Below are positions 12,478-22,155 of a stretch of DNA of 32,000 nt, one piece after another. The notes below the pieces were generated by a model that was not told the DNA's origin, searched no databases, and saw only the letters and a program-made list of their open reading frames with translations. Made by a program: the position numbers and the translations under genes. The stretch covers positions 1-32,000 of the forward strand of contig NZ_BCZP01000032.1 in assembly GCF_001598795.1 (NCBI RefSeq), written 5' to 3'. The first letter of the stretch is position 1. Every line of letters begins with the position of its first letter. Origin of the DNA: Delftia acidovorans NBRC 14950 (lineage in GTDB: Bacteria; Pseudomonadota; Gammaproteobacteria; Burkholderiales; Burkholderiaceae_C).

Positions 12478-12930
12478 TCAGTCCGCGCCCTGGCGCTCGC
12501 CCTCGGGCCAGTCGCGGATGTAGGCCTTGAGCATGCGGTTCTCGAAGTTCTGGCTGTCCACCACGGCCTTGGCCACGTCGTACAGGCTGATCACGCCCAT
12601 GAGCATGCGCTTGTCCATCACCGGCATGTAGCGTGCATGGCGGTCCAGCATCATGCGGCGCACCTCATCCATGTCGGTTTCCATGGTGCAGGTCATGGGA
12701 GCGTCGTCCATGGCCGAGCGCACCAGCGTCTCGCCCACCCCGCCGTGCTTGACGAAGCCCTGGATCACTTCGCGGAAGGTCAGCATGCCGACCACGTCGC
12801 CATGCTCCATGACCACGAGGGAGCCGATATCGCGCTCCGACATCACCTGCACCGCGCTGGCCAGGCTTTCGTCCGGCGACACCGTGTAGAGGGTGTTGCC
12901 CTTGACGCGCAGGATGTCACTTACTTTCAT
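12478..12930 (-). CDS. CBS-pair domain protein (150 aa)
   Basis: MKVSDILRVKGNTLYTVSPDESLASAVQVMSERDIGSLVVMEHGDVVGMLTFREV and a second CBS repeat RHARYMPVMDKRMLMGVISLYDV. SD GGAGA lies before the ATG at 12930. Confidence 0.85.
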   Translation of the reverse strand: MKVSDILRVKGNTLYTVSPDESLASAVQVMSERDIGSLVVMEHGDVVGMLTFREVIQGFVKHGGVGETLVRSAMDDAPMTCTMETDMDEVRRMMLDRHARYMPVMDKRMLMGVISLYDVAKAVVDSQNFENRMLKAYIRDWPEGERQGAD

Positions 12931-13036
12931 GCCGTATCTCCAAATTTGTCTGTGTCGCCGTGGTTGCGGCAAGCCCGTGTCTGACAGGAAATATAGCCCA
13001 CAATGCCCGCTTGCCTTGACAACCATGGAGACAGGA

Positions 13037-14335
13037 ATGCCCGGCTACTCGGACCCCGGCTTTGACACCCTGGCGCTGCACGCGGGCGCACAGCCCGACC
13101 CCGCCACCGGAGCGCGCGCGACGCCCATCCACCTCACGACCTCGTTCGTGTTCGAGTCCAGCGACCATGCGGCCTCGCTGTTCAACCTGGAGCGCCCAGG
13201 GCACGTCTACAGCCGCATCTCCAATCCCACGAACGCCGTACTGGAGCAGCGCGTCTCAGCCCTGGAAGGCGGCGTGGGCGCCATCGCCGTGGCCAGTGGG
13301 CAGGCGGCGCTGCACCTGTCGGTGGCCACGCTCATGGGCGCGGGCAGCCATATCGTGGCCAGCACGGCGCTGTACGGCGGCTCGCAGAACCTGCTGCACT
13401 ACACGCTGGCGCGCTTCGGCATAGAGACCACCTTCGTCAAGCCCGGCGACATCGACGGCTGGCGCGCCGCGGTGCGCCCCAACACCAAGCTGTTCTTCGG
13501 CGAGACGGTGGGCAACCCGGGCCTGGATGTGCTGGACATCCCCACCATCAGCGCCATAGCCCATGAAGCCGGCGTGCCGCTGCTGGTGGACTCCACGCTG
13601 ACCTCGCCCTGGCTGATGAAGCCGCTGGAGCATGGCGCGGACATCGTCTACCACTCGGCCACCAAGTTCCTGTCGGGCCACGGCACCGTGGTCGGCGGCA
13701 TCGTGGTGGATGGCGGCAGCTTCGACTGGGAAAAGTCGGGGCGCTTCCCGGAGCTGACCGAGCCCTACGACGGCTTCCACAACATGGTGTTCAGCGAGGA
13801 AAGCAGCACCGGCGCCTTCCTGCTGCGCGCGCGGCGCGAAGGCCTGCGCGACTTCGGCGCCTGCATGAGCCCGCATACGGCCTGGCTGATCCTGCAGGGC
13901 ATAGAGACGCTGCCGCTGCGCATGGAGCGCCACATCCGCAATACCGAGAAGGTGGTGCAATTCCTGGCCAGCCATCCGCTGGTGGGCCGCGTGGGCCACC
14001 CGCTGCTGGAGACCCATCCCTCGCACCAGCTCGCCAAGAAGCTGCTGCCGCGCGGCGCGGGCTCGGTGTTCAGTTTCGACATCAAGGGCAACCGCAACCA
14101 GGGGCGCAAGTTCATCGAGACGCTCAAGGTCTTCAGCCACCTGGCCAACGTGGGCGACTGCCGCAGCCTGGTGATCCATCCGGCCAGCACCACGCATTTC
14201 CGCATGAGCGACGAAGCACTGGCCCAGGCCGGCATCGGCCAGGGCACGATACGCCTGTCCATCGGACTGGAGGATGCCGACGACCTGATCGATGACCTCA
14301 AGCGCGCCCTCAAGGCCGCTGAAAAGGCAGCGTGA
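13037..14335 (+). CDS. metY: O-acetylhomoserine sulfhydrylase / aminocarboxypropyltransferase, PLP-dependent (432 aa; alternative start 13025)
   Basis: FDTLALHAGAQPDPATGARATPIHLTTSFVF...VYSRISNPT...YHSATKFLSGHG (PLP lysine)...IRLSIGLED. GGAG lies 6 nt before the ATG at 13037. Confidence 0.85.
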   Translation: MPGYSDPGFDTLALHAGAQPDPATGARATPIHLTTSFVFESSDHAASLFNLERPGHVYSRISNPTNAVLEQRVSALEGGVGAIAVASGQAALHLSVATLMGAGSHIVASTALYGGSQNLLHYTLARFGIETTFVKPGDIDGWRAAVRPNTKLFFGETVGNPGLDVLDIPTISAIAHEAGVPLLVDSTLTSPWLMKPLEHGADIVYHSATKFLSGHGTVVGGIVVDGGSFDWEKSGRFPELTEPYDGFHNMVFSEESSTGAFLLRARREGLRDFGACMSPHTAWLILQGIETLPLRMERHIRNTEKVVQFLASHPLVGRVGHPLLETHPSHQLAKKLLPRGAGSVFSFDIKGNRNQGRKFIETLKVFSHLANVGDCRSLVIHPASTTHFRMSDEALAQAGIGQGTIRLSIGLEDADDLIDDLKRALKAAEKAA

Positions 14336-14357
14336 GCCGACAAGGGAGACACCAACA

Positions 14358-15167
14358 ATGAAGATTGATGTTCAGGGCCACGCCATCTACGCCTATACCG
14401 GCGGCAAGGCCTTCAACCCCGCCCAGCCTACGGCCATCCTCATCCACGGCGTGCTGTGCGACCACAGCGTCTGGGCCCTGCAAAGCCGTTACCTGGCCAA
14501 CCACGGCTGGAACGTGCTGGCCATAGATCTGCCCGGCCACTGCCGCAGCGCAGGTGACGCGCCCGCCAGCGTGGAGGCAGCGGCGGATTTCATCGGCCAG
14601 CTCATGGATGCGGCAGGCATCGGGAAGGCCGCGCTGGTCGGCCACAGCTGGGGCAGCCTGATCGCCATGGAAGCGGCCGCGCGGCTGGGCGCGCGCGTCA
14701 GCCACCTGGCGCTGGTGGGCACGGCCTATCCGATGAAGGTCTCGCCCGCCCTGCTGGACTCCGCACTGAGCACGCCAGAGCAGGCCATCCGCATGGTCAA
14801 TGTGTTCTCGCGCGCCACGCTGGCGCCACCCAGCGGCGCAGGCAGTTGGGTATTCGGCGCCGGCATGGCGCTGGGCCGGCGCGTGCTGGCCAGCAATGAC
14901 CGCACCAACCTGCTGCACACCGGCTTCAAGGCCTGCGACAGCTACGCGGGCGGCGAGGCGGCCATGGCGGCGCTGCAATGCCCGGTCCTGTTCGCCCTGG
15001 GCGAGCAGGACCAGATGACGCCGCCCAAGGCCGCCAAGGGCCTGATCGAGGCGGCCCGGGGCGCGCAGCGCCAGGTCAGCATCGTGCACCTGCCCAGCGG
15101 CCACAACCAGATGACCGAGGCGCCCGACCAGACGCTGTTCGCCATCCGGGATTTCCTGGCACGCTGA
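14358..15167 (+). CDS. Alpha/beta-fold hydrolase (269 aa)
   Basis: HG oxyanion motif ILIHGV, nucleophile elbow GHSWGS, C-terminal GHNQM histidine. SD AGGGAGA before the ATG. It starts 22 nt after the metY stop, so co-transcription is likely. Confidence 0.8.
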   Translation: MKIDVQGHAIYAYTGGKAFNPAQPTAILIHGVLCDHSVWALQSRYLANHGWNVLAIDLPGHCRSAGDAPASVEAAADFIGQLMDAAGIGKAALVGHSWGSLIAMEAAARLGARVSHLALVGTAYPMKVSPALLDSALSTPEQAIRMVNVFSRATLAPPSGAGSWVFGAGMALGRRVLASNDRTNLLHTGFKACDSYAGGEAAMAALQCPVLFALGEQDQMTPPKAAKGLIEAARGAQRQVSIVHLPSGHNQMTEAPDQTLFAIRDFLAR

Positions 15168-15203: not shown

Positions 15204-16679
15204 TCACGCGCCGCGCGCGGGGAAGATGCTCTTTTTCACGAGCGCGTGCACGCCCCAGTTGCCATCCACCACCTGGGTGATGCCGAAGTCCACGGCAATC
15301 GACATCAGCGAGATGGCCTCGTCCTCTCCCAATCCCTGGGTGGTCATGAGGAAGTGACGCATCTTGTGATAGGCGTCGCGCAGCGCCAGGTCCACGGAAG
15401 ACTTCTTGAAGATCTGGTTTTGCGCATCAGGCCCCAGCTCCGCCAGGTAGTTGGCGTAGCTGAAGCCATGCAGCAGCCATTCGTCCTGGGTTTCGAGCAG
15501 CGGATAGGCCAGTTCGGCCAGCGGCGTTCCAGGCAGGTCCGCCTTCTTGTGCAGGACCAGCTGGAAGGTGCCGGTCAGCGAGCACTCGATGGCCGTGCCG
15601 CACAGCTCGGAGTCCCCCTGCGAGGCATGCGGATCGCCCACGGTGAAGTTGGCCCCTGGCACGGCCACGGGGAAATACATGGTCGCCCCCTTGCCGATGC
15701 GCCAGTTGTCGATGTTGCCGCCCGTGTGGTTGGGTGGAATGGAGCTGGCCATCTCCACCTCGGCCGGCGCCACGCCGATGGTGCCGAAGTGCGGGCGCAC
15801 GGGAACGCGGATATTGCGCAGCACGTTTTCGTTCTTGCTGATCGTGCGGTGGTCCACGGGCACGCCCGGATAGTCGATGGTCGGGTGGACCACGCCGAAG
15901 GGGTCGGTCTGCGGCGTCCAGCGGTAGTTGTAGACGGCGCGGGCCCAGTTGCGCTCGCCGGTCGCATCCACCTCGTAGATGGTGACCACCTCGCGCTTTC
16001 GGGGCTCGGTGAGCGTGTCGCCATAGTGAAAGCCCCAGTTCGCCGCCGCATTGCTGCCGAAGGTCCGGCCCTTGAATTGCGGGTTGCCCGAGGGGCGTGG
16101 CACCACATCAATGATGCGCACTTCCAGCACATCGCCGGGCTGGGCGCCCTTGATGCGTACCGGCCCCGTGCAGATGTGCACGCCCTGGCCTCCGCCTGCG
16201 CCGTTCTTGGCATCCATGGGACCGGCGCCCCGGCGATCGACGTTCTTGCGCTGGCTGTCCCAGTGGAACACGCTCTCGGCGCCAGGGTCGCCCCGGACCA
16301 TGCGTTCGGCATCGTCATTGGCATGGTGGGTCAGCGTCTCCATGGTCACGTAGTCACCCGATTCGACTTCGACCACCGGCTTGGCCGATCTGCTGAAGTA
16401 GCCCCAGAGCACGGTGCTGGCAGAGGCGGGAATGTAGTAGTGGCTGGCCATGCCCTGGCCGGCCCGGGCGCCAGGCGCGCCCTGGGCAAAGGCCCGGGAC
16501 GGTGCCATCGCGCCGCTGATGGCGCCGGCCGAGACCGCGCCGCCACCGACCACCATGGCGTCGCGCAGGAAGGAACGGCGTGCAACCTGGAATTCCTCGC
16601 GGATCAGCTTCTCATCGGCTGGCGAGGCACCGTGCTGGCAGCCCGGGCCGCAGATATGTTCTTGGTGGGGGATGGTCAT
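15204..16679 (-). CDS. Acetamidase/formamidase-family amidase with twin-arginine (Tat) signal peptide (491 aa)
   Basis: The Tat signal VARRSFLRDAMVVGGGAVSAGAISGAMAPSRAFA-Q lies at about 16485-16679. Family block VGDPHASQGDSELCGTAIECSLTG. Strong SD AGGAG 8 nt before the ATG at 16679. Confidence 0.85.
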   Translation of the reverse strand: MTIPHQEHICGPGCQHGASPADEKLIREEFQVARRSFLRDAMVVGGGAVSAGAISGAMAPSRAFAQGAPGARAGQGMASHYYIPASASTVLWGYFSRSAKPVVEVESGDYVTMETLTHHANDDAERMVRGDPGAESVFHWDSQRKNVDRRGAGPMDAKNGAGGGQGVHICTGPVRIKGAQPGDVLEVRIIDVVPRPSGNPQFKGRTFGSNAAANWGFHYGDTLTEPRKREVVTIYEVDATGERNWARAVYNYRWTPQTDPFGVVHPTIDYPGVPVDHRTISKNENVLRNIRVPVRPHFGTIGVAPAEVEMASSIPPNHTGGNIDNWRIGKGATMYFPVAVPGANFTVGDPHASQGDSELCGTAIECSLTGTFQLVLHKKADLPGTPLAELAYPLLETQDEWLLHGFSYANYLAELGPDAQNQIFKKSSVDLALRDAYHKMRHFLMTTQGLGEDEAISLMSIAVDFGITQVVDGNWGVHALVKKSIFPARGA

Positions 16680-16722
16680 CGAAAATACTCCTGCTGTTGT
16701 GGATCGGTGCCGGCAGCGCCAG

Positions 16723-16745
16723 TGTCCAGGCGAGCATGTCCAGGC
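16723..16745. promoter_or_regulatory. Direct repeat TGTCCAGGC x2 (candidate operator) in the divergent amidase control region
   Basis: TGTCCAGGC at 16723-16731 and 16737-16745. An inverted copy of the TGTCCA core (TGGACA, 16802-16807) overlaps a -35-like TTGGAC. Confidence 0.35.
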
Positions 16746-16839
16746 CGGTTGTTCCTGCGCGCACAAAAACTTGTCGCGACTGCCATCCGGTGCGCCGGGC
16801 TTGGACAGGCTGTACGCGGGCGTTCATAGTTCGCCCCTG

Positions 16840-19272
16840 ATGCACGACGATCCAAGACGCTTTTCCACCCACGCATTTCCCGATGCCTTGCGGCAGGCTG
16901 CGCTCAATGAGGCGCTGTCCAGGGCAGACATCCATGGCGAAGCGCCCACGCCACCGGCCACCCACCTGGCGCTGCGCAGCTCGTCACTGGGATCGGTGTT
17001 CATCACGCTGGCCACCTCGCCGCTGACGCTGCAGGCCGTGGCCAAGCGGCTGCGCGGCCCGGGCCTGCTGCTGTGCGCCTTGCTGCAAGGCAGCGCCGAT
17101 GCGGTGATCGAGGACGCCGCGTTCCCGATCAAGGCCGGCTCGGCCCTGCTGCTGGAGTCAGACCGGGACTGGCAGCTGCAGTTGCCCGGCGACGGCCGCC
17201 TGCTGCTTGCGCGGCTGGAGTCCTCGAGCTTTCTGTTGCGCCTGCTGCGCTCGTGCCCGCCCGAGGCCAGGCACATCGGCGGGACAGGCGGTGTGGGGGC
17301 CATGTGCATGGCAATGGCGGCCTCACTGGCAGAGCAGATCGACACACTGGCACAGGACGATCTGCTGTCGGTGGAGGCCACGCTCACCGACATGCTGGTC
17401 ACCTGCCTGACACCGCGCGCCGGCAATCCCGACCAGGAGCAGGCCGAGGCGACCGAGCCGCCAAGCGCCGTGCAGCTTGGCCATCTGCGCCGCATCTGCC
17501 GCGCCATCGAAACCCGGCTGGGCGATGCCGAGCTGTCCATCGATGCCATCGCCGACGCCGAGGGGCTGTCCACACGCTATCTGCAAAAGCTGTTCAAGGG
17601 GGCGGCCACCAGCTTCAGCACCTACCTGCGCGAACGCCGGCTGGAGCGCTGCCGCATGGACCTGAGCAACCGCTCGCTGCAGCATTTCTCCATTGCCGAG
17701 CTGTGCTTTCGCTGGGGCTTTGGCGATGCCGCCAACTTCAGCCGCGCTTTCACGGCCCGCTATGGTCTGTCCCCCAAGGCCTATCGCGCCAGTCCGGCGC
17801 GCGTGCAGGATGCGCCGCCCGGCCAGCGCGGACGCCCCTCGCCCGCCGAGAGCGCTGCGCAGGGTGCAGAACCGGCCGCAGCGCGCCTGGCACACAGCCC
17901 GTTCCAGGCCCTGCTGCGCGACCATGCACGCTACGCCCAGGCGCTGGCCCTTGTGCCCAAGCGCTCGGCGCACGCAGACAATGGCGGTGCGTCGCCCCAG
18001 CATTACTACCTTCCGGTCTCCGACAAGACCGTGCACTGGGGCTACCTGAGCCGTTCGCTCAAGCCCGTGCTTTCGGTGCGCTCGGGTGACGTGGTGACCA
18101 TGGAGACGCTGACCCAGCATGCCTCGGACGACTGGGAACGCATGATCGAGGGCGATCCGGGCGCCGAAAGCGTGTTCCACTGGACCGCGGCCCAGAAGGC
18201 CGTGGACCGGCGCGGCGCGGGCCCGATGGACGCCTCGATCTACGGCCGCGGCGCGGGCGAGGGCTTCGGCGTGCACATCTGCACCGGCCCCATCTATGTG
18301 CATGAGGCCGAACCCGGCGACCTGCTGGAGATACGCATCCTCGACGTGCAGCCACGCCCCAGCTGCAGCCCCGCCCACCACGGCCGTGTCTTCGGCAGCA
18401 ACGCCGCCGCCTGGTGGGGCTTTCACTACCGCGACCAGATCACGGAGCCCCGCCAGCGCGAAGTGGTCACCATCTACGAAATCGACCACGCACTGCCCGA
18501 GGAGCCCACGGCCCGCGCTGTCTACAACTACCGCTGGACGCCGCAGACCGACCCGTTCGGCGTGGTCCATCCGACCATCGACTACCCGGGCGTGCCCGTG
18601 GACCCCGCCACCATCACCCGGCGCTTTGGTGTGCTGGACAAGGCACGCGTGCCGCTGCGTCCGCATTTCGGCATGCTGGCCGTGGCACCGCGAGAGGCCG
18701 GCCTGATCGACTCCATACCGCCGAGCTACTTCGGCGGCAACCTGGACAACTGGCGCGCCGGCAAGGGCGCGACGCTCTTCCTGCCCGTATCGGTGCCAGG
18801 CGCGCTGTTTTCGGTGGGAGACCCGCATGCATCCCAAGGCGACTCGGAACTGTGCGGCACGGCCATCGAATGTTCGCTGACCGGCAGCTTCGAGCTGCGG
18901 GTGCACAAGCGCGCCGCGCTGGACAACCGCTTCCTTGCAGAGCTGGACCACCCTTTCCTGGAGACCGGCTCCGAATGGGTGATACAGGGCTTCAGCTTCA
19001 CCGACCACCTGGCCGAACTGGGCAGCCAGGCGCAGTCCCAGGTCTATCGCAAGTCATCGCTGGAAGGCGCCATGCGTGACGCCTTCCACAAGGCAAGGCG
19101 CTATCTGATGCTGGCCCACGGGCTGGACGAGGACGAGGCCGTATCGCTGATCTCCGTGGCCGTGGACTTCGCCGTGACGCAGGTGGTGGACGGCAACTGG
19201 GGCGTGCACGCCGTGATCAAGAAGGCGCTGTTTCCGCCGGAACTCTCGGCGTCCGCCCAGGCGGGCCCATGA
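16840..19272 (+). CDS. AraC-family regulator fused in frame to an acetamidase/formamidase domain (810 aa)
   Basis: There is no in-frame stop from 16840 to 19270. The AraC double HTH spans about 17476-17790 (LSIDAIADAEGLSTRYLQKLF...FSIAELCFRWGFGDAANFSRAFTARYGLSPKAYR). An amidase domain spans about 17998-19269 and is collinear with the neighbour 15204-16679. Start codon choice is uncertain because there is no SD. Confidence 0.7.
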   Translation: MHDDPRRFSTHAFPDALRQAALNEALSRADIHGEAPTPPATHLALRSSSLGSVFITLATSPLTLQAVAKRLRGPGLLLCALLQGSADAVIEDAAFPIKAGSALLLESDRDWQLQLPGDGRLLLARLESSSFLLRLLRSCPPEARHIGGTGGVGAMCMAMAASLAEQIDTLAQDDLLSVEATLTDMLVTCLTPRAGNPDQEQAEATEPPSAVQLGHLRRICRAIETRLGDAELSIDAIADAEGLSTRYLQKLFKGAATSFSTYLRERRLERCRMDLSNRSLQHFSIAELCFRWGFGDAANFSRAFTARYGLSPKAYRASPARVQDAPPGQRGRPSPAESAAQGAEPAAARLAHSPFQALLRDHARYAQALALVPKRSAHADNGGASPQHYYLPVSDKTVHWGYLSRSLKPVLSVRSGDVVTMETLTQHASDDWERMIEGDPGAESVFHWTAAQKAVDRRGAGPMDASIYGRGAGEGFGVHICTGPIYVHEAEPGDLLEIRILDVQPRPSCSPAHHGRVFGSNAAAWWGFHYRDQITEPRQREVVTIYEIDHALPEEPTARAVYNYRWTPQTDPFGVVHPTIDYPGVPVDPATITRRFGVLDKARVPLRPHFGMLAVAPREAGLIDSIPPSYFGGNLDNWRAGKGATLFLPVSVPGALFSVGDPHASQGDSELCGTAIECSLTGSFELRVHKRAALDNRFLAELDHPFLETGSEWVIQGFSFTDHLAELGSQAQSQVYRKSSLEGAMRDAFHKARRYLMLAHGLDEDEAVSLISVAVDFAVTQVVDGNWGVHAVIKKALFPPELSASAQAGP

Positions 19273-19285
19273 AGCCCGCCCGGGA

Positions 19286-20113
19286 TCAGACCCGTGCCAG
19301 GAAACGCGCGATGCGTTGGGCAATGCGCTCGGGCTGCTCGCGGTGGGGGACGTGGCCGCCGCCGGCCACGATCTCCACCTCCACCGGGCCGCTGGCGCGG
19401 TCGCGGATGCGCTCGGGATGGACCAGGGAGCCGAACTCGTCGAGCTCTCCATGGATGGCCAGCACCGGGCAGCGCACGCGCTCCAGCGCCTCGTCCAGCC
19501 GGTAGTCTGCAAAAGGCGGGGACAGCCAGGTATCGACCCAGGCAGACAGCACCCAGGCGGCCTTGTCGCCGTGGTATTTCTCCAGGCGCGCAAGCTGGCC
19601 GGGCCGGGCGAAATCCTGTTGGGCCGCGCGAATGCCCTGCAAGGTGCGATCTTCCACAAAGGCCTGGGCGGACTCCGTGATCACCGCCTTGCACTGCGCG
19701 CCATATCGGGCCGCCACCATGGCGGCCATGCCGCCGCCCACGCTGTGGCCCAGCACAATGAAATCCCCAAGGCCCAGCCCCTGGTGCACGGCCGGGAACA
19801 CGGTCTCTGCCTCCCGGGCCACAAAGCCCGGCCCCAGCGTGCCCGGATAGGGATCGGACTGGCCAAAGCCCAGCCGGTCATAGGCCAGCACATCGCGGCG
19901 CGTGGCCTCGGCCAATTGCTGCGGGAAATCGCGCCACAGCGCCACCGAGCCCAGCGAGTCGTGCAACAGCACGATGGGCGCGCGCGCCGGGCCTTGTTCG
20001 CCTTCGCCGGCCGCCGGCGCCTGCCAGCGCCTGACGTAGATGCTGCCCTGCGGTGTGGGAATGCGGATTTCGTTCAAGGATGCGGGGATGTCGGTCATGC
20101 ACGAGGAAGGCAT
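19286..20113 (-). CDS. Alpha/beta-fold hydrolase (275 aa; alternative starts 20098 and 20128)
   Basis: HD/HG motif VLLHDSLGS, nucleophile elbow GHSVGG, CPVLAIHGELD, GGHVPH. GGAG lies 8 nt before the ATG at 20113. Confidence 0.75.
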   Translation of the reverse strand: MPSSCMTDIPASLNEIRIPTPQGSIYVRRWQAPAAGEGEQGPARAPIVLLHDSLGSVALWRDFPQQLAEATRRDVLAYDRLGFGQSDPYPGTLGPGFVAREAETVFPAVHQGLGLGDFIVLGHSVGGGMAAMVAARYGAQCKAVITESAQAFVEDRTLQGIRAAQQDFARPGQLARLEKYHGDKAAWVLSAWVDTWLSPPFADYRLDEALERVRCPVLAIHGELDEFGSLVHPERIRDRASGPVEVEIVAGGGHVPHREQPERIAQRIARFLARV

Positions 20114-20331
20114 CGAAAAAAACTCCATGCCGGTCGGCGCCGGCCCGGCAGACATCATGCGCCTGCATGCCGCCAGAGGGCGACACCGTGGCGACGCGCT
20201 GGGCGAAATGCGGCAGCTTTTGTCTCTCTCGGGGCAGCTTTTGCGAACCCGGGCGCGCGGGTTCCTCCGATGGTGAAAGGCCAGGCAGCGGCGTATAAGT
20301 TGAAGCCACCCCACGCACGCGAAGGCCTGCC

Positions 20332-20685
20332 ATGTCACACGCTTCCGCTCCCCTGCCCGGCGCCGCACAGGCTGCCGTGGACCCGCGCCAGTTCAAGAGC
20401 TTTGCCGAGTTCTATCCGTTCTACCTTCAGGAACACAGCAACCGTACCTGCCGGCGCCTGCACTTCGTCGGCTCCACGCTGGCGCTGCTGTGCCTGTTCG
20501 CGCTGTTCCTGACCGGCAATTTCGGGTTCCTGCTCGGCGGCCTGCTGTTCGGCTACGGCTTTGCCTGGATAGGGCACTTCGGCTTCGAGAAAAACCGGCC
20601 CGCCAGCTTCAAGCGCCCGCTGTACAGCTTTCGCGGCGACTGGGTGATGTGGCGCGACATCCTCACCGGACGCATTGCACTCTAA
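20332..20685 (+). CDS. DUF962 (Mpo1-like) membrane protein
   Basis: FAEFYPFYLQEHSNRTCRRLHFVGSTLALLCLF...GYGFAWIGHFGFEKNRPASFKRPLYSFRGDWVMW, typical of DUF962. Confidence 0.8.
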   Translation: MSHASAPLPGAAQAAVDPRQFKSFAEFYPFYLQEHSNRTCRRLHFVGSTLALLCLFALFLTGNFGFLLGGLLFGYGFAWIGHFGFEKNRPASFKRPLYSFRGDWVMWRDILTGRIAL

Positions 20686-20701
20686 AGCGCCGCGCCGGGC
20701 A

Positions 20702-22048
20702 CTACGGCCGGGGCCGGCTCTCCAGCAGGCTGGCCAGCGTCATGCCCGCCAGGCCCGTGCGCTCCCACAGCGGCTGCACGGCCGCGGAAGGCGCCAGCAG
20801 CAGGCGTTCGACCAGGGGGGCCAAGGGCGTGTGTTGCGGGTCCACCAGCAGCATGTAGCGGGGCTCGGTGCCCTCGCTGCCCGCCGCAACGCCAGGCGCC
20901 TGCACCGTTCCCACCCAGTCGAGCACGGACAGCGCCTGCAGCACCGGATCGATCTGCTGCCAGTCCACATGCAGGCGTCGTGCCAGATCGCTGGCATACA
21001 GGCCCTTGGCGGGCGACTCGCGCTCCTGCTCCAGGTACTGCAGGATTTCCACGGCCATCTCGAACTGCCAGCCCTGCTGTCCGGGCATGCGCTGCACGCC
21101 GGCCATGACGATGGGCAGATACGCGGTGACCACGGCGCCCAGCAGCACGATGATCCAGGCCATGTAGATCCAGATCAGCAGGATCGGCAAGGTGGCAAAG
21201 GTGCCGTAGATGACCGAATAGGTAGGCACCGAGGCCAGGTACAGGCCCAGCGCCTTCTTGGCCAGCTCCATGCAGGTGGCCACGAACAGGCCGCCCACCC
21301 AGGCATGGCGCCAGCGCACCGCCGTATTGGGCACGTAGTGGTACAGGCCCGCCATGCCAGCGGCCAGCGCCAAATACTCGATGGAATCGAAGATGAAGCG
21401 CAACCCCTCGGGCAGCGCATTGACCAGCCCGCGCGAGGCCGACATCACATAGGACGACAGCACCAGGCTCAGGCCCAGCACCAGCGGGCCCAGCGTGATC
21501 GCGGCCCAGTAGATCAGCACGCGCTGGCCCAGCGGCCGCAGCTGGCGCACGCGCCAGATGTTGTTGAGCGTGCGGTCTATGGTGAGGATCAGCGCGACCG
21601 CCGTGATCACCAGAATGGAAAAACCGGCCATGCCCAGCTGGCTGGCCTTGGAGGCGAACTGCGTCAGATAGCCCAGCACCTGGCGCGCAATGGTCTCGGG
21701 GATCAGGCTGTCGATCAGCCAGCGCTCCAGCACGATCTGCACGCGCGAGAAGATGGGAAACGCCGTGAACAGCGCCAGCGCCACCGTGAAGAACGGCACC
21801 AGGGCCAGCACCGTGGTGAAGGTCAGGCTGCTGGCGGTGACGCCCAGCCGGTCCTCTCGAAAGCGTTCGCGCAGCGTGTGCGCGGTATTGCGCCAGGGAA
21901 AGCAGCGCAGGCGCTCGCGCCAGGATGGGGGCACCACAGGCTCGGGCCGCTCCATCAGCGAAAGGCTGCGCTCCTGTTCGGGCGCGGGCAGTGCAACGGC
22001 ACCGTCCTCCAGGCCACCGGCAGGCTCCTGCCCGGGGCCGCCGCTCAT
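20702..22048 (-). CDS. YihY/BrkB-family inner membrane protein (448 aa; start uncertain among 22048, 22054 and 22105)
   Basis: RLGVTASSLTFTTVLALVPFFTVALALFTAFPIF...GTFATLPILLIWIYMAWIIVLLGA, a multi-TM YihY pattern with a soluble C-terminal extension. GGAG lies 8 nt before the ATG at 22048. Confidence 0.8.
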   Translation of the reverse strand: MSGGPGQEPAGGLEDGAVALPAPEQERSLSLMERPEPVVPPSWRERLRCFPWRNTAHTLRERFREDRLGVTASSLTFTTVLALVPFFTVALALFTAFPIFSRVQIVLERWLIDSLIPETIARQVLGYLTQFASKASQLGMAGFSILVITAVALILTIDRTLNNIWRVRQLRPLGQRVLIYWAAITLGPLVLGLSLVLSSYVMSASRGLVNALPEGLRFIFDSIEYLALAAGMAGLYHYVPNTAVRWRHAWVGGLFVATCMELAKKALGLYLASVPTYSVIYGTFATLPILLIWIYMAWIIVLLGAVVTAYLPIVMAGVQRMPGQQGWQFEMAVEILQYLEQERESPAKGLYASDLARRLHVDWQQIDPVLQALSVLDWVGTVQAPGVAAGSEGTEPRYMLLVDPQHTPLAPLVERLLLAPSAAVQPLWERTGLAGMTLASLLESRPRP

Positions 22049-22155
22049 CGCCATATCTCCGCTGCAACGCGCGTGCCTGAAACGGGAACGCGCGTGACCA
22101 TCCAAGCAATCACATGTTCAAAGGACAAGACCATGGCCGATATGATGCCACCCCG

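Follow-up and report, generated by a model that had tools for sequence, protein, structure and literature searches.

In a 32,000-nucleotide stretch of Delftia acidovorans NBRC 14950 (contig NZ_BCZP01000032.1, positions 1 to 32,000; hereafter the window), we analyzed a gene whose 810-residue product joins a complete AraC-type transcriptional regulator to a complete acetamidase/formamidase (FmdA_AmdA) domain, together with a divergently transcribed gene for a paralogous amidase that carries a twin-arginine leader. We found that this fusion is a genuine, old and widespread architecture, present in at least 80 proteobacterial species, and a conserved sequence motif in the shared upstream region makes a regulatory link from the fusion to the neighboring amidase gene well supported. 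With about even confidence, we read the fusion as an AraC-type activator that responds to an amide, acts locally on the adjacent amidase gene and uses its C-terminal enzyme domain as sensor; in other species, on the best-supported reading of the gene neighborhoods, the regulator would control an amidase/transport operon. DNA binding by the fusion, a positive sign of regulation, the nature of the ligand, catalysis and export of the neighbor by the twin-arginine route are the parts of this scheme that we infer.

The fusion gene occupies positions 16840–19272 of the forward strand as a single stop-free frame, read directly from the window sequence, and the protein is identical to WP_034396200.1, an exact match that recurs in Delftia genomes at NCBI. 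The frame is open upstream as far as 16450, and the start codon was placed at 16840 because the N-terminus MHDDPRRFSTHAFP (MHDDPRRFST) fits the conserved MxDDLxRFSTxAFP start of the homologs. The order of parts is a FeaR-like AraC N-domain, a double helix-turn-helix (HTH), a linker of about 70 residues and a full FmdA_AmdA domain, as an earlier note on the window had proposed from the letters alone; profile searches bore this order out. The putative effector/dimerization domain, of AraC_binding_2 type and cupin-like (residues 40–190, positions 16957–17409), scored 26.3 bits with PF14525, just below the Pfam gathering score of 27, and AraC_binding_2 is recorded for most homologs of the fusion. 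FeaR was the top NCBIfam model for the N-terminal half (equivalog NF007243), at 90.2 bits against a cut-off of 199, a distance which indicates that the fusion is FeaR-like and not a FeaR ortholog. In the AlphaFold2 (AF2) model this domain is beta-rich, with predicted local distance difference test (pLDDT) values of 80–94, and it is the least conserved part of the protein (31–60% identity). The DNA-binding domain follows at residues 210–318 (17467–17793). Since both HTH models scored above their gathering scores (HTH_18 at residues 237–317, 65.3 bits with a cut-off of 33.6; HTH_AraC, 43.6 bits with a cut-off of 26.6), it belongs with the double-HTH domains of the AraC/XylS family, and AF2 places helices at residues 210–317 with pLDDT of about 75–90.

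The C-terminal part is a full-length FmdA_AmdA domain (residues 386–800, positions 17995–19239) that scored 100.1 bits with PF03069 against a gathering score of 27 and matched residues 71–480 of the chain in PDB entry 3B9T with E = 1e-183. Both this domain and the neighboring enzyme matched the solved family members 3B9T, 5UBU, 2II1, 3TKK, 2F4L and 2WKN. The condition of the fused domain was assessed at 65 positions that are at least 95% conserved among 71 stand-alone partner amidases of all three classes described below, compared with 80 fused domains. At all 65 positions the residue of the stand-alone enzymes was found in at least 95% of the fused domains, and none had switched. The retained residues include H427, D430, H479, D494, E497, H609 and N634 as well as D636, D661, H663, D668, E670, E677 and H790, and the core motifs GGN.D and GD.HA.QGD.E..G.A.E are intact and align with five solved family members. 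By these measures the fused domain does not resemble a degenerate pseudo-enzyme, and since the conserved residues, presumed to be catalytic or metal-binding, are all retained, binding or even turnover of an amide, which the earlier note had suggested from a single conserved block, appears plausible. Besides, 12 positions are conserved in the fused domains only (for example E474, W525 and R565). Every PDB entry of family members holds 4–8 chains.

The age and spread of the architecture were examined in a scan of one genome per species, which returned 567 relatives; the best 80 loci were analyzed, and the operator scans described below covered 84 loci; one of these loci (L001) is 99% identical to the window. 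In all 80 loci, from Beta-, Gamma- and Alphaproteobacteria, the AraC and amidase parts lie in a single stop-free open reading frame (ORF). More than 110 protein clusters, formed at the 90% identity level, cover 98–100% of the 810-residue query at 52–100% identity and all carry HTH_18 and FmdA_AmdA; clustering at 50% identity left only a few full-length representatives of the family. The identical 810-residue protein also occurs in many independent Delftia assemblies. These counts uphold the uninterrupted frame of the earlier note, with no frameshift or missed stop. A neighbor-joining (NJ) tree built on 152 amidase domains placed all 80 fused domains in a single clade that contains none of the stand-alone enzymes, and this monophyly points to one fusion event. 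The only relative called as two overlapping genes (P0164, L085:1592–4022) has an AraC part of 349 residues and an amidase part of 473 residues; because a catalase gene on that contig is split too, it probably reflects an assembly error and not an unfused ortholog. Databases already recognize the combination. WP_034396200.1 is labeled as an acetamidase/formamidase family protein, and GenBank ABX37592.1 as a transcriptional regulator of the AraC family with acetamidase/formamidase activity. A literature search on AraC–acetamidase/formamidase fusions, regulators with amidase domains, trigger enzymes and 3B9T found no paper on this fusion. Thus the statement of the earlier note that no characterized AraC regulator with such a module is known held in so far as none was found; the architecture itself is widespread and already annotated.

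The divergent neighbor lies at 15204–16679 on the reverse strand, exactly as the earlier note had placed it, and encodes a stand-alone amidase of 491 residues that starts with MTIPHQEHICGPGCQHG (MTIPHQEHIC). It scored 109.3 bits with PF03069 (gathering score 27) and matched 3B9T over 483 residues with E = 1e-254, including the Cys/His segment and the twin-arginine (RR) motif of the leader; 3B9T and the GenBank record of Delftia acidovorans that holds the exact neighbor sequence are both named as twin-arginine signal proteins. The proposed end-to-end paralogy with the fused domain is real: BLASTP aligned 294 of 478 residues (62% identity, E = 0), with 66–67% over the catalytic domain, both blocks quoted earlier as identical are present, and a 3-residue insertion distinguishes the fused domain near GxGxG-GVHICTGP. 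A canonical formamidase FmdA was considered as the identity of the partners and rejected, as scores with the FmdA equivalog NF045496 were 52–68 bits against a cut-off of 500 (52.5 for the fusion, 68.4 for the neighbor, 65–68 for partners of the other classes). The substrate would be some small amide, and formamide should not be assumed.

The leader of the neighbor (residues 1–65, 16485–16679, reverse strand), as read from the sequence, consists of a Cys/His n-region (HICGPGCQH), the stretch A-R34-R35-S-F-L-R-D, a Gly/Ala/Val-rich core AMVVGGGAVSAGAISGAMAP and the apparent cleavage site AFA-Q, with RRSF[LI] conserved across partners of the same clade. These are the elements of a twin-arginine translocation (Tat) signal (a motif of S/T-R-R-x-F-L-K type, a core of moderate hydrophobicity and an AxA cleavage site), the leader that the earlier note had recognized, and the neighbor is predicted to be exported by this route. 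The fused copy has neither a signal peptide, as none was seen at the N-terminus of the fusion sequence, nor a transmembrane-like segment, for which the linker was scanned with 15-residue hydropathy windows, so that its proposed cytoplasmic location is supported as well. A membrane regulator like ToxR with an exported C-terminal domain was considered on this account and rejected, since the hydropathy maximum of the linker was 0.53, compared with 1.53 in the leader of the partner. An AGGAG ribosome-binding site (16688–16692, reverse strand) lies about 8–9 nt upstream of the amidase ATG at 16679. Ahead of the RR motif, at residues 8–16 (16632–16658, reverse strand), the leader has a conserved H-[IV]-C-x-x-G-C-x-H segment, which 3B9T shares with all Tat-type partners that a motif search recovered. 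This segment persists in partners of the Herminiimonas/Oxalicibacterium type that lost RR and the hydrophobic core, which suggests a role beyond export, for example in binding a metal or a chaperone.

The evidence that ties the two genes together comes from the region between them. An alignment of regions upstream of Tat-type partner genes revealed the motif GACAAG-N5-GTGCGC-N5-GACAAG. In Delftia the predicted operator GACAAGTTTTTGTGCGCGCAGGAACAACC lies at 16747–16775 on the reverse strand, a direct repeat of ACAA(G) with a 22-bp spacing that encloses GTGCGC. It faces the exported amidase gene, whose ATG (16679) is about 70 bp downstream of it, and the distance to the ATG of the fusion (16840) is 65 bp. 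The exact pattern matched once in the whole window, without mismatch (16749–16775, reverse strand; 0.03 expected by chance), and with a position weight matrix (PWM) the 29-mer at 16747–16775 scored 28.6 bits, compared with a maximum of 11.8 bits in shuffled sequence. Across species, the pattern ACAA-N6-GT[AG]CG-N7-ACAA gave 31 matches in 30 of the 84 loci (two in L081, one in each of the others; about 0.1 in total expected, by estimate). These exact sites sit upstream of the partner amidase or of the first gene of the operon and face it, except in L027 and L031. The operons headed by such sites run from a substrate-binding protein (SBP) and a permease/ATPase to the amidase and the fusion, in some cases followed by RidA. 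In 59 of 84 loci the PWM derived from the exact sites found a match that scored above all shuffles, which reached 11.8 bits at most; these matches lie mostly before the partner amidase or the operon. Three sites were found in L081, before the SBP, amidase and CN_hydrolase genes, and two in L083, before the amidase and a Porin_4 gene.

In an independent scan of all contigs of a metagenome set, the exact 18-base pattern occurred at 39 loci, 19 of them beside genes of the family (amidase and/or AraC part); in these 19 the amidase was mostly directly downstream of the site, and several of the other sites lay at the cut end of the stored sequence. The layout, a strong 17-bp half-site with a partial repeat 22 bp further on, next to or overlapping the presumed −35 region, resembles the I1–I2 half-sites of AraC by analogy. 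As to variants of the motif, weaker second sites of the form GACAAT.A.TTGTTCGTTG...ACAAGA were seen at L018:7077, L019:11393, L020:6657 and L083:12268. Their position in the Herminiimonas/Oxalicibacterium group is 3' of the fusion gene, and the one in L083 is just before the Porin_4 gene, which suggests that an outer-membrane uptake channel may be part of the regulon. In some loci of Paraburkholderia (L027:7700–7728 and L031:6537–6565, both reverse strand), a strong site faces a divergent gene and not the operon of amidase and fusion, and a weaker one faces the amidase.

On the other side of the intergenic region, a candidate sigma-70-like promoter for the fusion gene, TGGACA-17-CATAGT (16802–16830, forward strand), was found in a consensus scan (one site, 0.1 expected), which is weak evidence. 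It stops 9 nt ahead of the ATG at 16840, and no Shine-Dalgarno sequence was visible before that ATG; the mRNA of the fusion gene may be leaderless. The genes that flank the pair (12893–15167 and 19286–22105) encode a MetY-like enzyme of the Cys_Met_Meta_PP family, two alpha/beta hydrolases, an Mpo1-like protein, a BrkB/YihY-family membrane protein and a CBS-domain protein. No evident connection with amide metabolism was seen for any of them, so that in Delftia the pair is a two-gene island.

Comparison across species showed which parts of this arrangement are general. A stand-alone FmdA_AmdA gene adjoins the fusion in about 68 of the 80 loci (about 85%), and three classes of partner were distinguished. 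Tat-type partners, with an RRSF[LI] leader, occur in about 20 loci and are mostly 81–100% identical to the exported copy of Delftia, including three relatives with decayed leaders at 64–68%. Cytoplasmic partners, which start directly at MKHH.LPVS, occur in about 26 loci (about 60–69% identity to the same copy), and distant partners of 345–390 residues in about 25 loci (34–42%). In 12 of the 80 loci no partner was seen, several of these being short contigs. The Tat-exported type is confined to one subclade, in which only the fusion/amidase pair is conserved and the surroundings vary. The two genes diverge only in Delftia, Variovorax and Rubrivivax; in Aquabacterium, Pseudomonas, Methylophaga and Nitrincola a partner of this type precedes the fusion on the same strand. 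Of the arrangement described in the earlier note, a fusion with a divergent partner, the fusion is conserved in all 80 loci; the partner varies and is divergent only in the Delftia/Variovorax/Rubrivivax group. Elsewhere the pair lies within transport operons, one form of which consists of SBP_bac_3, a fused permease-ATPase, the amidase, the fusion and RidA; SBP_bac_3, the fused permease-ATPase and RidA are present in 29, 32 and 20 loci, respectively. Another operon form holds a Peripla_BP-type ATP-binding cassette (ABC) system and CN_hydrolase, and TauD, SDR, Rieske or LigB genes are added in some loci. Several conserved neighboring ORFs without a Pfam match are probably antisense artifacts of a high-GC genome. 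A recent preprint (bioRxiv 10.1101/2024.02.22.581678) links FmdA_AmdA enzymes, controlled there by other regulators, to L-amino-acid amide uptake. A separate system was noted in Methylibium (L082:16157–20535), where a canonical fmdA-type formamidase of 409 residues, a Zn_ribbon_8 (FmdB-like) gene and an ABC transporter of urea/amide type lie about 5 kb from the fusion/Tat-amidase pair, so that two amidase systems stand side by side.

The idea that the sensor is a duplicated copy of the enzyme it controls must be qualified by these data. It gained from the conserved operator, which links the fusion to the neighbor gene; the fused domain, on the other hand, is an ancient paralog and not a recent copy. 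A recent tandem duplication of the neighbor was considered and rejected, as the fused domains form one clade over 80 species and the identities of partners to the fused domain are flat (59–66%). The fused domain is also about equally conserved whatever the class of its partner. Because of this independence from the partner, the loci without a partner, and a site in L033 (Nevskia) that precedes a TauD gene instead, control of the enzyme by its own copy is not a general rule.

The linker between regulator and enzyme showed two features. Residues 320–351 are predicted by AF2 to be disordered, and directly after the second HTH lies an R-G-R-P motif (residues 330–333, 17827–17838, forward strand) of which R330, G331 and P333 are invariant in the fusion alignment, R-G-x-P being kept in 80 of 80 proteins. 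The RGRP of Delftia equals the core of an AT-hook, and the spacer between the operator boxes is A/T-rich; the motif may make a minor-groove contact. Further on, AF2 predicts a helix at residues 354–371, inside a leader-like segment at residues 353–375 (SPFQALLRDHARYAQALALVPKR, 17896–17964, forward strand) that aligns with the RRSFLRD region of the partner leader. This helix is found in the Delftia-proximal subclade (L001–L021), in which L004–L021 read RRxxF..VL.DHARYA..L.L.PKR; RR is kept in 14 of 80 fusions, Delftia itself is without RR and reads HSPFQALLRD, and more distant fusions have no such helix. The likeness is only suggestive of a Tat leader remnant. As an explanation for the whole family, a vestigial Tat leader is only partly tenable, given the limits of the helix (L001–L021) and of RR (14 of 80), and the branches of the NJ tree that make the fused domains sister to the partners of Tat type are short.

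Taken together, we favor the following scheme. The fusion would bind the direct repeat GACAAG-N5-GTGCGC-N5-(G/A)ACAA(G) (16747–16775 in Delftia) and, when a small amide is present in the cytoplasm, activate transcription. The C-terminal amidase domain would recognize the amide and probably hydrolyze it, which would make the signal self-limiting, and the N-domain would provide dimerization and possibly a second input. The induced paralog would be exported in folded form by Tat and hydrolyze the amide in the periplasm. The contexts of the fusion loci, with transporters of amide and amino-acid type, CN_hydrolase and RidA, count in favor of this scheme. Several observations weigh against it or against parts of it. 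The canonical N-terminal AraC effector-type domain is kept and could be a real, or even the only, sensor; the amidase domain was accordingly not established as the sensor that the earlier note had made of it. The operator was not detected by PWM in 25 of 84 loci, 12 of 80 loci have no partner amidase, conservation of the fused domain does not follow the partner class, and the L033 site precedes a TauD gene. Assignment of −10 and −35 elements for the amidase promoter was poor, a scan for the sigma-70 consensus having found none on that strand. The sole profile match to the leader, TIGR01409, was sub-threshold (12.9–15.0 bits, cut-off 16.7), and the Pfam Tat model (PF10518) gave zero matches. 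In the AF2 model of the full protein the AraC half was confident and the amidase half poor, with a predicted template modeling score (pTM) of 0.41, so that the model provides no argument about contacts between domains. Within the Tat-type clade, the fused domain also evolves faster than the exported enzyme (72–85% vs 83–93% identity to the respective Delftia copies).

Other explanations place the sensing elsewhere. It is unlikely, in our estimate, that the fusion is of the Rosetta-stone kind without allosteric coupling, in which the N-domain alone senses and the C-domain is a cytoplasmic amidase held in fixed stoichiometry or a module for oligomerization. The N-domain and DNA-binding domain by themselves make up a complete stand-alone AraC protein, the linker is long and disordered over residues 320–351, and the full set of conserved enzyme residues would serve such an amidase equally well, as the multi-chain structures would serve oligomerization. 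The fusion nevertheless arose once and is unbroken in all 80 species, its sole split being on a contig with another split gene; this persistence suggests a functional link, and allostery is not proven by it. A somewhat less probable relay would have the product of the fused amidase (the acid, or ammonia or an amine) act as ligand of its own N-domain, so that the regulator reports turnover and not binding. FeaR-type regulators respond to pathway intermediates, and it is to these that the N-domain is most similar; it is canonical and well folded in the AF2 model, and is conserved together with an apparently intact enzyme domain. Against the relay stands that it is the least conserved part of the protein. 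The more general form, a one-component sensor coupled to catalysis, in which an active amidase either makes the ligand of its own N-domain or lets its catalytic cycle set the state of the DNA-binding domain, we hold to be unlikely too, and such a mode of sensing has, to our knowledge, not been described for AraC-family proteins.

Quite improbable is a pseudo-enzyme sensor, that is, a fused domain that binds the amide after loss of catalysis, in the manner of the GATase1-like domains of AraC regulators of the GbdR/CdhR type. Its faster evolution in the Tat-type clade, the 12 positions conserved in fused domains only and the 3-residue insertion are what such a change might leave behind, but not one of the 65 residues conserved in the stand-alone enzymes has been lost or replaced. 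For the Tat-type clade one may further imagine that the fused domain forms mixed oligomers with the precursor of its paralog before export, or binds the leader, and thereby couples transcription to Tat flux. The 62–67% identity of the paralogs, the multi-chain nature of all family structures, the leader-like helix in the linker and the unusually conserved Cys/His n-region of the partner leader are compatible with this idea; it is purely speculative and very improbable, and as most loci have a non-exported, very different or absent partner, it is not a mechanism for the family. Finally, there is a negligible chance that the fusion is a sequencing or assembly artifact, with two ordinary genes run together through a frameshift or a missing stop in the interval 17790–18000. 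P0164 (L085) is indeed called as two genes, and in one alternative frame the GC content at third codon positions (GC3) of the linker equals or exceeds that of the coding frame. The split catalase gene in L085 marks an error-prone assembly, and the same 810-residue protein in many independent Delftia genomes, the stop-free fusion in 80 of 80 loci and the invariant in-frame RG.P motif inside the linker all speak against an artifact. We thus retain the amide-responsive activator with an enzymatic sensor domain as our preferred reading.

Known systems offer partial parallels to each aspect of this activator. FeaR of Escherichia coli, the top NCBIfam match, has, like other activators of its kind in the AraC/XylS family, an AraC_binding_2-type N-domain, which the N-domain of the fusion resembles, and a C-terminal double HTH; it is a local activator of a catabolic enzyme gene and also controls the periplasmic enzyme TynA. 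Nothing follows the HTH in FeaR, whereas the fusion has 490 further residues including a whole enzyme. Rob of E. coli resembles the fusion in having a sensor-type domain C-terminal to the AraC DNA-binding domain, in this case a GyrI-like ligand-binding domain. Unlike the fusion, Rob lacks an effector domain at its N-terminus, and its small C-domain binds ligand without being an enzyme, in contrast to the 415-residue fold of the metalloamidase family in the fusion, whose conserved residues are intact. A DNA-binding regulator and an enzyme also share one polypeptide in Ada and AdaA-AlkA and in the trigger enzymes PutA and BirA. In Ada, the AraC-type HTH is flanked by enzyme domains, and in such proteins the enzyme part acts on the controlling compound. 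The fusion differs from them in enzyme family, chemistry and regulon; both of its modules look intact, and its catalysis and regulation may be coupled. AraC regulators of the GbdR/CdhR/ArgR type likewise derive their sensor from a fold of amidohydrolase-type enzymes (GATase1-like, DJ-1/PfpI). Their GATase1-like domains are N-terminal and catalytically degenerate; the fusion instead carries an FmdA_AmdA domain at its C-terminus, with none of the conserved residues missing.

Known amidase regulons (P. aeruginosa amiE with AmiC/AmiR, the M. smegmatis acetamidase and Methylophilus fmdA-fmdB) show amide-inducible control of amidase and transport genes, and some fusion loci share accessory genes with them (a Peripla_BP-type ABC transporter, CN_hydrolase and a porin). 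Their regulators are different, an ANTAR antiterminator with a sensor like a periplasmic binding protein (PBP) or the Zn-ribbon protein FmdB, and none is an AraC–amidase fusion. A close homolog of the exported partner that also matches the fused domain, 3B9T, is a structural-genomics entry of the JCSG for a stand-alone protein, for which no published function was found in the literature. Among the systems compared, none contains an intact FmdA_AmdA domain, and the fusion is conceptually close to known fusions of enzymes and regulators.

If the AraC DNA-binding domain is indeed under the control of the C-terminal amidase domain, a complete and still functional enzyme would clearly have been recruited as the sensor of a one-component regulator, with a single evolutionary origin and a defined operator. 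Should sensing be coupled to catalysis, the regulator would report amide flux and clear its own signal, and in the Delftia clade a cytoplasmic copy of a periplasmic enzyme would serve as the taster of that enzyme. The system is compact and readily testable, since in Delftia a single regulator, operator and target gene fit into 4 kb, and it may yield an amide-responsive biosensor part. It also offers a way toward the substrate of the long FmdA_AmdA amidases, a large subfamily to which the orphan structure 3B9T belongs. The predicted regulon of amidases, amino-acid- and amide-type ABC importers, a porin, CN_hydrolase and RidA points to amide scavenging, which would be a common activity of soil and marine proteobacteria.

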